From Candidatus Omnitrophota bacterium (GTDB lineage: Bacteria; Omnitrophota; Gorgyraeia; Zapsychrales; Zapsychraceae): a stretch of 64,000 nt of DNA. Of this stretch, positions 19,485-60,891 are shown one piece after another. The position numbers were made by a program, and so were the translations under genes. The stretch's first letter is position 1. The number at the start of each line of letters is the position of its first letter. The notes below the pieces were generated by a model. It saw nothing but the letters and a program-made list of their open reading frames with translations, did not search any database and was not told where the DNA came from. Where the stretch lies: the NCBI GenBank assembly GCA_050250375.1, contig JBFWOS010000002.1:453149-517148 (forward strand), given 5' to 3'.

Positions 19485-22400
19485 TCAACGGATAAATGCA
19501 AGGTCGCGGGCGGAGGCGGAAGAAAGTTTCTGCCGGGTTATCTTTTCCATCGGGTAATCAGCGGACGACGGAGTCTTTTGCGGAACAGGTTTGCTCACCG
19601 CATCGGCCGGAGTTTCATCCGGCGTATTCAATCCTAACAGCAGGTACAGATTTGTCACCGGCGTGATATTGATGATCACCGGCTGGATCCCGTTGATCTG
19701 AGCGGGAATCATTGGCATCAGCCCGTTTTCGAACCGGATGTGTTCCCCCGTTTCTTCCAGACGCATATTTTTTGTATTAAAGTCGACCCCGCCCAGGTCT
19801 TTGGAAGTCATCGCTTCATCTGACCGGACCGTTTTCTTGAGTGCATCCGCCAGATCCCCGACGGTTGCGAACGATTTATGCCGGATAGTCAGGTGAGATG
19901 GCACAAAATCGACATCATGCCCTTCATAACCGATCTGAACAGTGACAGTAGTCCCCAGGAATTCAGCCATGGAGTTAAACGAAACGCTGATCCCTTTTTC
20001 CCTCAACTCGGCTGAGATTTTTGCCTGCGTGGCAGGTTTATACAATTCTTCCTGTTCGGATAAGACATCCGGAGTTGCCCCGTTTAAGTATTCGAGCAAA
20101 ACTTTATCGGCCGTCATCGCCTGGTCGGCAAACAAAAGATTTAATTCAACCGGGCTCACCAGGTGGTTGGCTTTCAACCAGATGTAAAAGGTCTGGTTGA
20201 CGACCGGCGCATCGTTCGGCTGTTCGAAATTGTTTGAAATTCCGGCAAACCGCAGGGATTCACCCAGGTCACGGATCAGCGCGCGGTTATTGATTTTCTT
20301 GAAAACCTCATGGACCATCGCCAGATTCAGCTGGACGATTTGTTCCTCAGTCAGGGAAACTTCCCAGACGGTATAGGCCAGTGCGGCGAGGATGTCCGTT
20401 TCGGAAATCTTGGAATGATCCAGGATTCCGGCCCGTTCATAATAATATTTTCGCATCAAGGTGACCCCGGGATCAAACAGGATTTCTTTTCCTTCCTGGT
20501 CGAGATAACTGCGGGTGGCATGTTCCAGATGAAAGACCGGCAGGGTGTGTGACGCGCCCCGGATCACGGCAATCTTTTTTCCGGGATATTGGATGTGCAG
20601 GTCACGGATCTGTTCGGTCAAGGCCATATCACGGCGGTAATGCAGGTCAGCGATGGATTGGATGGTTTCCTTAAAATGTTCAATGGCCGCGTCAGGGTCT
20701 CCGGTAAGGTTACGGACGGATTGAACGAGTTCCCGGTTCAATCCCAGCAATTGTTCCTTCCAGCCGGCTTGCGGCGCGCGCGATCCGGCAATGATCTTTC
20801 CGCTGTTTTCGATGGCCTTCAGGATAGTCCGCGGGGATTTGAACAGCGGGTCAGGAGTCTTGAACGATTGCAGCAACTGATCGGCGGTCATCCCGTTTTG
20901 GTCGGCGACGTTTTGATACTCCCGGCTCAAGGCGGATCCCTCGTCAATTTCTTCAAGAACAATAATATCCGCGGCCTGGACCGAATCGCGGATCTTGTCC
21001 CGGTGTCTGGCCATGGTCAGGTGATTGCCGTAAACAAAATGGACACTGTCCCGGTCTTCGGCCTGCATCGCGGAATCCGGATAATACGGCGGTACATTCA
21101 GCAGTTTATTGGCCAGATCGATGAGCGCGGCCTGGTTTAAATTTTTTCGTAATTGGATCAGATTGATAAAGGCGTCGGCCAGCCGGACAAACTCGGGAGA
21201 ATCACCCGCTTCCTGCTGGTCGGCAATGTCCTGCCCGGTAATCGCACGCGGACGTTCAGGATCATTGGTCTGAATAAGAAAATGGAAAAGTTCTCCGCGG
21301 GCCAGATTTTTCAGATACCGGCGGAACAACCGTTCGTTCGGCTGCAGGACCGTCATCCAGTGGTGCAGAAATTCACGGAATGGATCGCCGTTCAGGGAGG
21401 CGGAACGCTGGGTCGTCATAGCGCCGAAACGGTAAAGCTGCGCGGCCCGGCGCTGAATATCTTTGTCTTTGTTGTCGATCATGTTCGTAAACAGATAATC
21501 CAGTTCCGCTGCGATCAGAACCGGGCTGACGCGGTTCTTCCGTCCGTTTGACTCTTCCTTAAAGGCCGCGGCTGTCGAAACAACATTACGTTCCAGGTCC
21601 TGGAGGTTTTCGGCCAGCATCGACTGGTCGTCCCCAATCCCCAGTTCTTTCATGAACGCATTGAAGATCAGTTTGGCCAATCCCCGGAGATAAAAATCGC
21701 TGTTGAGATAAAATTTGAGTCCGGTCGCGTTTACGTGCTGCAGGGAAACGACCGTTTGGACGGATTCCGACCACCGGCCTTCTTCATCACGTTCAAAAAG
21801 AGGCAGAGTCTCGGTCGTGACCTTTAAAGGTGTTTTGGAGTTGCGGGTATTAAAATGGACCGTAAATACTTCTGCAAACCGGACAGAACGGTTAAAGTGG
21901 TTCTGCGCCTCTGAATCTGTTTTGAGTTTGTCCGGATTCTCTGTATAAATGATGACCCGGTCGATCTTTCCGGCTTTATTGGTTTTCCGGAAGGAATAGT
22001 CTTGCTGATAAGATTTCTGCACCGCGGTCATGACCGGGACAATGACGGATTCATAAAAATCGGCGGATTGAGATATTGTGGCGCGCGCGATTTCTCCCAT
22101 CATCGCATGATCTTTGATGCGTCCGTCGGCATCGAAAGTTACGACCTTGCCGGCGGCTTCAACGGATAATTCACCTTCGGACGCCAGCTGAATAGAGGCG
22201 ATATTCCGGGCAATATGGTCGACCATAAAATATCCGTCCTGCTTGAATTTATGGACAATGATCTCGCGCCTGTCCGCGTCCGGCCCTTCGCTGGCCTCGT
22301 AGATTTCCGCCTTGCGGATGCCCAGGGCGTTGGCCAGTTTCACGACCGCTTCCGTCGGGTTCATCCCGAGGCTGGTCAGCTCCATCACCATGATATTGTT

Positions 22401-60200: not shown

Positions 60201-60891
60201 CGATGTAATCCTGTTCCAGCATGACCTTCAGTTTGCTTTCGACCACAAAGGCCGTGTCGCCGTTTTCATAAACCACCGCGTTGTCCGGGACGATCCAGAC
60301 TTTGATGAACGTATCCAGCTGGAGTTCGGCGGAACCGTATTTCCGGACGATTTTCTGCCGGACATCGTTCCAGAAATGTTCCCCCAGCTTATCTTCCGGG
60401 TACATCATGGAGGCCGTCAATTGTTTGAGCACATAGTCCTGGGCCAGCAGGTCGCGCCCCATTTCCGTGACGCCGAATTTGTCCGGGATGATCCGCTGTT
60501 TTTCAAAAGGCGACAAATTGACCCACAGGTCTTTTTCCGGAATGGTTAATGAGGCCAGAAAATATTTGATGAGCCGGTTGGACTCTTCATACAAAAAGGA
60601 ATCCACGGTCTTTTCATCCCCTGTTTCCAGGATAAAATCAAAACGCAGCGGATTGTTGGGATAAATGCGCAGTCCCTTGATCAGGGTCGGATTGTAGAGA
60701 TTGCTGGTCTTGACCATCTGTCCCGGGGTGGTCAGGTGGAGCGCAGACAACCATGGTTGCGGTCCCGGCCGTTCTTGCGCGTAAGTATATTGAGCCGGCA
60801 CAGTCAGGCCAAAACCGATCATGAAAATGATCAGCGCTGTTACCAGGCGTGAGCCTCTGGATGATTGCCGTTTTTGTAGCCACTGAAACAT
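57214..60891 (-). CDS. Giant secreted multidomain protein (1225 aa): signal peptide, shared N-terminal module, RIO/Kdo/APH-type protein-kinase-like domain, GNAT acetyltransferase-like domain, and the shared C-terminal module
   Basis: An ATG start with signal peptide ...QYTYAQ. The kinase catalytic-loop and metal-binding motifs are AFHGDLHTENIIID and LIDWD. The GNAT motif is FVVAPEFQGTQAASWLL. The C-terminal module is GGIDLNP...PVIFQIIPVNNLPLLLG. Confidence 0.85.
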   Translation of the reverse strand: MFQWLQKRQSSRGSRLVTALIIFMIGFGLTVPAQYTYAQERPGPQPWLSALHLTTPGQMVKTSNLYNPTLIKGLRIYPNNPLRFDFILETGDEKTVDSFLYEESNRLIKYFLASLTIPEKDLWVNLSPFEKQRIIPDKFGVTEMGRDLLAQDYVLKQLTASMMYPEDKLGEHFWNDVRQKIVRKYGSAELQLDTFIKVWIVPDNAVVYENGDTAFVVESKLKVMLEQDYIAHTEFDQNKNLKQSEAATDEQTREQRTVTAEIIREILIPAIEKEVNEGKHFATLRQVYHSMILATWFKRNLKESLLGRIYLDQSKTGGVDVADKEIKQKIYDQYLEAFKVGVYNYIKEEFDPVSQELIPRKYFSGGMELQFGSLDNNNLRVVRELTRPVQPKGVTFMVESGVDPVTGGLRSGIVNQDSSRVDPDTLGVSERFVEEEFREFQRRNYSFLTGALQTLISDLTGDTPGETRPIEAPIARFLEQVRQRLADVSRDNRQRNEFLRQYQSLLRVYIDSAPTVLSDLNGRAVSPAARQATEEDGVTGTRTTVEITNDTALSQQIVVQQYDAANALPFFEAGVRLATSDNAVLASTGEQVEINVDDFFGDRSQQLLDELKQVIVDRRPVVIRVKGKDYRLEEIIAADLLKPVFRGVEIRADGTESEPLAIKFFSQFLLDNIISMDKISLLEFFLAVRNDERVKQFVAMPNANLEDNISLQPNMIEMQFIRGTHFDAVTDRGERLRILAEVAREIAYISTTYGAFHGDLHTENIIIDETTGRPRLIDWDTLKMDLDKTDVRSLQAGIKYRDMIVIGEILLNTFSRARATINDAMLNKETMTLAPVNPAEFRGTTTFDGTPQNDMPASIWAIVEKALFANPNENYESMEDLSNDLNQAIAGLDQTALGQSDNAVLADVQTINNQQIRIAPLTKEMLLSNQKYRVLNGQIMRFRLNPIENRSNMDDYSFVLLDTNNEPVGYAIVQYNGNGNAVYMSDFVVAPEFQGTQAASWLLHRTFTNIAEKTQGNVTSAWWSYNFWNRPAVTRQQNFYKAIGASVWNVQEDPDDDVRMRSSYRFNFETDLPTLYTKYQNDLRGTELPAGTTVSPVTDIETPAVVAATDIPPQIVAEDVTPTATSERVGGIDLNPADLIIEKRGKGINMTVPLDPLILRELESMPLDGFAPVIFQIIPVNNLPLLLGIADPAQDEDNPEISIRSQSPYIKEDDTGILTLSAYTP

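Follow-up and report, generated by a model that had tools for sequence, protein, structure and literature searches.

Three very long genes in a genome of Candidatus Omnitrophota raise a question: what are proteins that have both of their ends in common and nothing in between, and what might the common ends be for? Omnitrophota are widespread, uncultured, ultra-small bacteria that are thought to be predators or parasites. The genes lie in a 64,000-nucleotide stretch of contig JBFWOS010000002.1 (hereafter, the window). We refer to them as G1 (19485..33950), G2 (43041..50330), and G3 (57214..60891), encoding proteins of 4821, 2429, and 1225 aa, respectively; all coordinates are positions in the window, and the three genes and their features are on the minus strand. 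NCBI names the proteins after single cargo domains (G1, 'ARMT1-like domain-containing protein'; G2, 'AceK regulatory subunit'; G3, 'GNAT family N-acetyltransferase'), and the latter two names in particular mislead metabolic reconstructions. An earlier reading of this DNA, made from the sequence alone, had described the three as secreted proteins in which a shared N-terminal module (N-module) and a shared C-terminal module (C-module) enclose a swappable core. We found that G1 to G3 are three paralogues, members of a very large protein family that is confined to the phylum Omnitrophota, and that enclosure of variable cargo between an N-module and a C-module is the rule of the whole family.

Pairwise BLASTP comparisons confined the similarity among the three proteins to their two ends, as the sequence-only reading had claimed. 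The N-terminal ~360 to 400 aa are 44 to 51% identical (E = 7e-95, 2e-108, and 5e-93), and the C-terminal 68 to 85 aa are 34 to 43% identical (E = 8e-6 to 9e-9); outside these regions no further similarity was found, and the cores are unrelated. When the first 400 residues of all three are aligned, 126 columns are invariant. The N-module is ~310 aa long and ends in an invariant YFSGG (G1, 32904..33839, aa 38 to 349; G2, 49323..50231, aa 34 to 336; G3, 59794..60777, aa 39 to 366). The C-module spans ~60 to 65 aa, with the consensus GGIDLNPALLDLQIKRDGNGVPLPLDPQPLENMNIEGFVPVIINITPVTNLPLLLG and the pattern GGIDLN...GFxPVIxxIxPVxNLPLLLG; it occupies 19605..19805 in G1 (aa 4716 to 4782, GGVDFN...QPVIINITPVTNLYLLLG), 43089..43280 in G2 (aa 2351 to 2414), and 57322..57507 in G3 (aa 1129 to 1190).

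Neither module matches a named family, and the sequence-only reading had recognized none either. The N-module has no match in Pfam or NCBIfam even at E ≤ 10, the C-modules have none at the same threshold in either database (tail models of the type IX secretion system [T9SS] included), and a profile of the N-module has no match among PDB sequences. An AlphaFold2 model of G1 residues 39 to 365, computed from 123 sequences, has a mean predicted local distance difference test score (pLDDT) of 88.2 and a predicted template modeling score (pTM) of 0.85; it shows an alpha/beta domain with several long helices and a long beta-hairpin. Judged from this model, the N-module appears to be a new fold with no detectable relative among solved structures. 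A Foldseek lead to the ClyA family of alpha-pore-forming toxins was dropped, as the structural match to MakA, NheA, and SmhA was not significant. The invariant residues of the N-module include four Trp, three Tyr, three Phe, three Lys, and two Asp, Glu, and Arg. Many are aromatic or charged, and with Cys, His, and Ser all absent, they resemble a binding surface more than a catalytic site.

To what extent do G1 to G3 stand for a larger group? The N-module profile detected at least 1,020 proteins in a collection clustered at 90% identity, with E-values around 1e-150 and identities of 47 to 61%. G1 to G3, from which the profile was itself built, score 1e-182 to 1e-218, and their homologues ~1e-150 to 1e-170. 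Nearly all matches with a named source come from Candidatus Omnitrophota or Omnitrophica, and in some the N-module is fused to PGK, PGI, a pyridoxal phosphate enzyme, or NUDIX. An exhaustive HMMER search of 1.84 billion representatives yielded 8,258 clusters (50% identity), of which 6,578 have E ≤ 1e-30; the N-module begins within the first ~50 residues in every one of the 150 representatives listed (lengths 420 to 5,312 aa). On GTDB contigs (one genome per species), we confirmed at least 499 matches, with many per genome, and kept 79 loci for closer analysis. These come from named Omnitrophota, except for metagenome-assembled genomes (MAGs) labeled 'uncultured Planctomycetales' or simply 'bacterium', and contain 109 open reading frames (ORFs) with an N-module; those of a locus point the same way, and tandem arrays of three or four are frequent. 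The cores vary across the family, and the N-module profile provides a sequence handle for cataloguing the whole cargo repertoire.

The C-module completes the bracket in most members. Exactly one C-module, 0 to 59 aa from the end, is present in 69 of the 83 complete N-module ORFs in the 79 loci, and 108 of 133 independent representatives have exactly one at the end (median distance 27.5 residues); the family-wide rate of a single terminal C-module among complete members is ~81 to 89%. In G1 to G3, the single C-module lies within ~80 aa of the C-terminus. Throughout the 79 loci, C-module ORFs that lack an N-module are all either cut by the edge of the locus or adjoin other family ORFs, and five C-module-bearing ORFs directly after an N-module ORF without a C-module are split genes. 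A C-module lacking an upstream N-module was seen in no complete ORF. A search with a C-module profile retrieved mostly short C-terminal fragments and decayed stand-alone copies, with no new context. These counts extend the proposed architecture from three proteins to the family, in which it recurs thousands of times in the phylum and dozens of times per genome. The split genes, which involve five of the 83 complete N-module ORFs, are in loci L002, L016, L018, L043, and L064; there the reading frame with the N-module breaks off, and the remaining cargo and the C-module are encoded by a second ORF that overlaps or adjoins it. The cause could be sequencing frameshifts, pseudogenes, or programmed events.

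Split genes of this kind, seen for a few family members in other MAGs, and a decayed C-module duplicate downstream of G2 are what can be said for an artefact, in which the giant ORFs would be misassembled or would represent fused or decayed genes without function. We regard this as scarcely credible. The ORFs are uninterrupted over up to 14.5 kb, and the same architecture, with conserved termini, recurs in thousands of independent sequences. Assembly chimerism, a risk acknowledged in the sequence-only reading, is ruled against because the genes lie on a contig of 1,006,043 bp in a Candidatus Omnitrophota genome (NCBI assembly GCA_050181705.1), two NCBI accessions exist for each of the proteins, and the Logan source also contains G1 and G3.

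What, then, lies between the modules? Pfam and NCBIfam searches upheld the cargo domains that had been recognized from the sequence alone, weakly so for the G3 kinase. G1 contains an ARMT1/DUF89-like damage-control phosphatase domain (29094..29849, aa 1368 to 1619, E = 8.6e-29; PDB 2g8l) and two glutamate dehydrogenase (GDH)-like units (unit 1, 24849..27281, aa 2224 to 3034; unit 2, 22107..24551, aa 3134 to 3948), which are internal repeats with 38% identity. The ELFV_dehydrog model scores 130 bits against a Pfam cut-off of 23.4 bits, over two stretches, the best being aa 3515 to 3703; ELFV_dehydrog_N was not detected by Pfam, and by eye YAGAK stands in place of GGGKGG. G2 contains an AceK-like region (46785..48455, aa 626 to 1182) that aligns to the whole of E. 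coli AceK: aa 628 to 1180 match residues 12 to 567 of PDB 4p69 (E = 2e-39), indicating full-length homology, with an NCBIfam score of 296 bits, under the 488-bit cut-off. The catalytic and metal-binding residues of AceK are D457, N462, and D475 (E. coli numbering), the last of which binds Mg. In G2 (aa ~1060 to 1090, window ~47060-47150), where the alignment is of high confidence, D457 is kept, N462 is replaced by His, and D475 is replaced by Asn; from these replacements, the AceK-like domain is probably not an active kinase/phosphatase. It is followed by two D-2-hydroxyacid dehydrogenase-like units (unit 1, 45006..46619, aa 1238 to 1775; unit 2, 43323..44930, aa 1801 to 2336) that are 41% identical. 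Unit 1 has GLGRIG (GxGxxG) and keeps the Glu and His, with the catalytic Arg replaced by Lys, and unit 2 reads HGIRRIG by eye. G3 contains a weakly matched protein kinase-like domain (58402..58770, aa ~708 to 830; Bud32/RIO/APH/TCAD9, E = 3e-5 to 5e-3), in which the loop HGDLHTEN (HGDLHxxN) and an IDWD motif look intact by eye, and a GNAT acetyltransferase domain (57760..58053, aa 947 to 1044, E = 5e-6).

In 74 further members, a minority of the cargo has a Pfam match at E ≤ 1e-5. The matches comprise HEAT repeats, receiver domains, GDH, alanine dehydrogenase, DnaJ, methyltransferases, PP2C, NUDIX, low-molecular-weight phosphatase, HATPase, DRAT, UDPGP, peptidase M3, PGK, GGDEF, PGM/PMM, GT2, acyltransferase, and LysM; PGI also occurs as cargo elsewhere in the family. 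The theme of 2-oxoglutarate and central metabolites that had been seen in the three cores is therefore local, as cargo across the family is diverse, mostly unannotated, and, where annotated, mostly of other, normally cytoplasmic kinds. The description of the cargo as 'pseudo-enzymes' fared better in part: the AceK-like domain has lost two of three key residues, whereas unit 1 of the hydroxyacid dehydrogenase pair keeps GxGxxG, Glu, and His, and the kinase loop of G3 looks intact by eye. From these residues, the label would fit some of the cargo at most.

If the cargo is of cytoplasmic type, does it leave the cytoplasm? We called signal peptides heuristically (charge, hydrophobic stretch, and cleavage-site pattern). 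By this measure, the claim that all three proteins begin with a signal peptide agrees with the features of each: a K/R-rich start, a single hydrophobic stretch of 15 to 19 residues, and an A-x-A/Q type site. The predicted signal peptides are at 33840..33950 in G1 (aa 1 to 37, predicted cleavage AYA|Q), 50232..50330 in G2 (aa 1 to 33, LLA|Q), and 60778..60891 in G3 (aa 1 to 38, TYA|Q). The same features are present in 87 to 88 of 90 family members, and G1 to G3 have no other hydrophobic 19-mer resembling a membrane helix besides the N-terminal stretch. A twin-arginine (Tat) signal was considered for G1, which has SRRCVIW, and rejected, as the twin arginine is not conserved in the family. After the predicted signal peptidase site comes a nearly invariant L-P-x-P-G-x-M motif (AQxxLNLPxPGTMV), seen in G1 at aa 42 to 47 as LPQPGL.

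These features bear on an explanation that we consider quite improbable, namely that the proteins serve the producer's own metabolism, with an N-terminus that is an uncleaved anchor or is unused for export, as fused multi-enzyme assemblies that would sit in the cytoplasm or on the membrane and economize on genome. It has the cargo families on its side, which are ordinary cytoplasmic enzymes needing ATP, NAD(P), or S-adenosylmethionine, as well as the rest of the window, a housekeeping region of the chromosome with ordinary genes (ValRS, homoserine dehydrogenase, aspartate kinase, a LeuA-like gene, and GpsA); the literature, too, says of a predicted extracellular placement of such domains that it 'seems highly unlikely' in some cases. 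However, K/R residues before the hydrophobic stretch, none directly after it, and a conserved small-x-small/Q site fit a cleaved Sec signal, and there is no second membrane helix that could return the chain to the inside. The cargo is also divergent, with bit scores far under NCBIfam cut-offs and an AceK-like domain without N462 and D475, and most of it is unannotated and not conserved between relatives, which is a misfit with core metabolism.

We found that the cargo of many members is punctuated by a short motif, which in this genome takes the form D-x-A-[MV]-[LVIM] and in other lineages is replaced by SSP[VIL]. G1 contains D-x-A-M ten times, against ~0.5 expected by chance: DQAMM (32019..32033, aa 640), DQAME (30111..30125, aa 1276), DGAML (29043..29057, aa 1632), DEAMV (28272..28286, aa 1889), DQAML (28065..28079, aa 1958), DFAML (27342..27356, aa 2199, directly before GDH-like unit 1), DHAMM (22098..22112, aa 3947, where GDH-like unit 2 ends), DSAMQ (21063..21077, aa 4292), DQAMT (20112..20126, aa 4609), and DEAMT (19806..19820, aa 4711, 5 residues ahead of the C-module). 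A variant, DQSML, is at 21615..21629 (aa 4108). The ARMT1/DUF89-like domain sits between the motifs at aa 1276 and 1632. G2 has DQAML (49242..49256, aa 359, 23 aa past YFSGG), DTAML (49155..49169, aa 388), and a degenerate DHMMS (43293..43307, aa 2342, 9 aa ahead of the C-module), and G3 has the variant DNAVL twice (59137..59151, aa 581; 58177..58191, aa 901), the second copy between the kinase-like and GNAT domains.

Enrichment of the motif is a property of the family. In 112 family proteins, DxAM occurs at 1.26 per 1000 aa, compared to 0.105 expected and 0.12 in neighboring genes; in an independent representative set, the density is 0.91, compared to 0.109 expected and 0.07 to 0.09 in scrambled controls. 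D-x-A-M-[LVI] is enriched 9 to 12 times and D.AML 46 times. We also scanned 297,000 cargo residues without bias for all patterns of three and four residues, gapped and ungapped. D.AML came out on top, with 147 occurrences against 3.2 expected, followed by SSPV, with 101 against 2.8. The two motif types are anticorrelated (Fisher odds ratio 0.29, p = 1e-5): proteins with at least three of one type have the other at background level only, as in L008 and L020, each with nine SSP and no DxAM, or L007, with 10 to 17 DxAM, and tandem paralogues of one locus use the same type. The first motif follows YFSGG by a median of 46 aa, the last precedes GGIDLN by a median of 20 aa, and successive motifs are separated by approximately the size of a domain (median 214 aa, interquartile range 102 to 433).

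Several other accounts of the motif were considered and set aside. The codons at the G1 motifs vary synonymously (GAC/GAT for Asp; GCC/GCG/GCA for Ala), which indicates selection on the peptide and not on the DNA and makes a recombination scar at the DNA level unlikely. An internal translation start (ribosome-binding site plus ATG) was rejected given this codon variation and the lack of an upstream Shine-Dalgarno-like sequence. Long disordered linkers around the motifs were likewise rejected, as polar residues are only mildly enriched within 10 aa on either side. Searching the literature for the motif strings turned up nothing of relevance.

The motifs coincide with the borders of exchanged cargo. 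Among the 79 loci, the closest relative of G1 is L001, from MAG HKST-UBA13, with an N-module 63% identical to that of G1. The two proteins also have three cargo blocks in common, at differing offsets and with unrelated sequence between them. The first block (G1 aa 639 to 1279, L001 aa 931 to 1577, 56% identity) begins and finishes at a DxAM in each of the two proteins (G1, 640 and 1276; L001, 932 and 1574), so that the first two G1 motifs listed above mark its start and end, and another, the second (G1 aa 1623 to 1880, L001 aa 2224 to 2486), has DxAM at its end in both (1889 and 2496). Family-wide, 18% of cargo homology-block ends have a DxAM no more than 20 aa away, compared to 5.8 +/- 2.8% at random; at most a few of 500 randomizations reached the observed value. 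Exchange of cassettes at the junctions is therefore supported, and with it the idea of cassette-type diversification that had been put forward for this locus; the blocks shared by G1 and L001 stand in different contexts and end at the junction motif.

How might these elements work together? We propose that the family members are Sec-exported modular carriers, possibly polyproteins, that deliver their cargo, a combined explanation for which we find belief and doubt about evenly balanced. The signal peptide would take the whole chain across the cytoplasmic membrane. The N- and C-modules would be common handles for one conserved partner encoded elsewhere, such as a secretion, sorting, or anchoring machine, and the variable cargo of cytoplasm-type enzymes and signaling domains would be a payload destined for the cell surface or for the inside of a prey or host cell. 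Delivery into another cell would be the most coherent destination because a payload of cytoplasmic type lies behind a Sec signal with no helix to return it. The junction motifs would most likely be recognition sites for a lineage-specific factor that acts in trans; because unrelated motifs fill the same positions and the paralogues of a locus agree, a co-evolving recognition enzyme, most simply a protease, would fit best. Our best guess for this factor is a protease that would cut the carrier into separate cargo proteins, making the carriers bacterial polyproteins. For the cleavage step alone, doubt somewhat outweighs belief. Cassettes, from zero to many per member, would be gained, lost, and exchanged at the junctions. 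The most specific version of this proposal, in which the proteins are true polyproteins that are cut at DxAM[LVI] or SSP[VIL] and delivered into prey or host, and the modules are the recognition elements of a delivery system specific to the phylum, is doubtful in our estimation. The suggestion of secreted effectors or surface arrays made in the sequence-only reading would seem more plausible given the Omnitrophota context and the cytoplasm-type cargo behind Sec signal peptides.

A number of observations count against the proposed carriers. Export, cleavage, and delivery are all deduced from features of the sequences. Cargo that depends on NAD(P) or ATP would find no cofactors outside the cytoplasm, which fits delivery into prey, or else a misleading signal-peptide prediction. 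Near-empty carriers exist, such as P0086 (564 aa) and N-only ORFs of ~400 aa, and because members with almost no cargo exist, the modules may have a function of their own beyond that of handles. In a single-chain AlphaFold model of P0086, the C-module has a pLDDT < 60 and makes no contact with the N-module, with a shallow alignment for the C-module. No protease domain is among the Pfam matches of G1 to G3, and no conserved neighboring transporter or protease emerged when 663 neighbor ORFs from the 79 loci were clustered by sequence, clusters that were not scanned against Pfam; only response regulators (in 14 loci) and sensor kinases (in 8) recur as neighbors of the family genes. Neither motif type is present in 60 of 242 members; these may rely on additional variants, among them the DxAV[LIV] of G3, L012, and L015. 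Some domain borders lack the motif, such as that in G2 where the AceK-like region meets the hydroxyacid dehydrogenase units, and the mildness of the polar enrichment in its flanks belongs with these points.

Some of the same observations suit a different explanation, in which the proteins are exported, remain uncleaved, and form a surface coat or scaffold attached to the envelope. Such a coat would carry multiple enzymes or binding domains, with N- and C-modules that anchor it or join head to tail (cohesin/dockerin-like), and the junction motifs would be structural or binding motifs in linkers and not cleavage sites. We consider this unlikely, yet well worth weighing. Cargo-poor members and N-only ORFs suggest an autonomous structural role for the modules, and the resemblance of the invariant N-module residues to a binding surface points the same way. 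Some C-modules hold an internal DPAM[VL] stretch, so the motif can belong to a folded or binding element. LysM and HEAT cargo is present in the family, and a cultured relative is named for a 'coat' that its giant protein is proposed to form. However, it is hard to see what receiver domains, DnaJ, kinases, or NAD(P)-dependent dehydrogenases would do at a surface, and two unrelated motifs that alternate strictly by lineage in the same positions are more what one expects of a recognition site evolving together with its enzyme. The AlphaFold model without N-C contact in cis also speaks against joined modules, weakly so given the shallow C-module alignment.

Do the proposed carriers belong to a known system? 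We compared them with three systems in which conserved ends accompany variable cargo. MARTX toxins have glycine-rich repeat ends, leave the cell by type I secretion with no Sec signal peptide, and carry their own cysteine protease domain, and their effectors are freed by linker cuts after Leu and before a small residue. As in the MARTX proteins of Vibrio and relatives, conserved ends bracket a domain array shuffled by recombination in G1 to G3, and the MARTX cut context resembles the M-[LVI]-[ASGT] of the junction motif; unlike MARTX, G1 to G3 have a Sec-type signal peptide, and Pfam searches of whole proteins and modules found no glycine-rich A/B/C repeats or cysteine protease domain. TpsA/CdiA proteins have a two-partner secretion (TPS) beta-helix with NPNL/NPNGI motifs, and the gene for an Omp85-type TpsB adjoins. 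They are like G1 to G3 in having a Sec signal peptide and a conserved N-domain of ~250 to 300 aa ahead of a very long variable passenger whose parts can be exchanged, but G1 to G3 have no Pfam match to the haemagglutination activity domain, and the modeled N-module is alpha/beta with long helices and has no PDB relative. No gene for a TpsB (Omp85-family) transporter is present in the window. T9SS cargo consists of dozens of diverse paralogues with a Sec signal and a small C-terminal sorting domain, with the machinery encoded elsewhere. The resemblance lies in many paralogues per genome, a Sec signal, a small conserved C-terminal domain, and diverse enzymes; the differences are the lack of a Por_Secre_tail-type match (Pfam/NCBIfam, E ≤ 10), the phylum, and the extra N-module. 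Membership in MARTX, TpsA, or T9SS cargo can be excluded because their defining features were tested for and were absent.

The closest comparison is with the giant multi-enzyme proteins of Omnitrophota themselves, described as 'Archaeovorin' or 'multi-enzyme metabolic cluster' proteins (bioRxiv 10.1101/2023.11.21.568195; bioRxiv 10.64898/2026.06.07.730766). Like these, G1 to G3 are encoded in an Omnitrophota genome and have a signal peptide and unrelated enzyme families tiling one chain, and cargo across their family is of the same palette (NUDIX, methyltransferase, GNAT, HATPase, receiver, and PGM). Catalogued giants have been defined by size, as proteins of at least 10,000 aa (Nielsen & Lui, 10.64898/2026.06.07.730766) or genes of >90 kb encoding >30 kaa (thousand amino acids) (West-Roberts, 10.1101/2023.11.21.568195), whereas G1 to G3, at 1.2 to 4.8 kaa, fall short of either length. 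The giants also have tens to hundreds of membrane helices and C39/S8 peptidase and SecA-like domains (both preprints); G1 to G3 have only the N-terminal hydrophobic segment and no Pfam matches to C39/S8 peptidase or SecA-like domains. The N-terminal regions of the giants were described as without identifiable domains, and export and perhaps cleavage were already proposed for them, one preprint stating that the cleavage points are unknown. In neither preprint did we find mention of the two modules, of their bracketing of the cargo, or of the junction motifs. Exported multi-enzyme mosaics in Omnitrophota were therefore already known; the bracket of two previously undescribed domains, one with a fold that lacks a solved relative, the family of >8,000 clusters, and the lineage-specific motifs are new, and they extend the giant multi-enzyme puzzle to thousands of proteins of ordinary size (0.4 to 5 kaa). 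The junction motifs may mark the long-sought cleavage points of the giants and are concrete candidate processing sites to seek in existing proteomes, and G3, with 1225 aa, is a tractable member for experiments.

The surroundings of the three genes show several further features. Upstream of G1 are a Cache-HAMP-PAS histidine kinase and a solute-binding protein (35838-39197, minus strand). An AT-rich island at ~39400-42500, between G1 and G2, has a GC content of 0.345 in the 40- to 42-kb bin, compared to ~0.53 around it, and encodes Sel1-repeat (39465-40091), TPR (40190-41086), and MORN-repeat (41522-42469) products; a second MORN-repeat gene (61049-62257) is directly upstream of G3. Directly upstream of G2, a divergent ORF (50502-51614, +) encodes a DUF1016 N-terminal domain and a staphylococcal nuclease domain. 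The regions upstream of G1 (33951-34134) and G2 (50331-50501) have a conserved stretch in common, with a TTGACA box and TGATTCCAAATTCCCCAATC...ATAACTTTAGTT, which is not found upstream of G3; a duplication seems to have taken in the promoter region as well as the 5' end of the gene.

Downstream of the G2 stop, a decayed fourth C-module (42566..42793, minus strand) is a copy of the G2 3' end (tblastn, E = 6e-14). It belongs to a 105-nt direct repeat (42564-42668 versus 43042-43146, 87% identity) that copies the end of G2, and it is read as a 68-aa ORF (42563-42769) ending in ...FILGHAGPNEKIPAAPKLTLAR. A small Rv0078B-like gene (~42669-42941, 90 aa, PF18993) lies between the G2 stop and this copy and looks as if it was inserted into the end of G2 or duplicated along with it. 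Lastly, many members have a tail after the C-module with the weak consensus ...E-E-x-L-S-x-L-N (family-wide, Leu at -2 in 25%, Asn at -1 in 18%, and Ser at -3/-4 in ~20%), which may be a further terminal signal; G1 ends in ...DLAFIR and G2 in ...KLTLAR.

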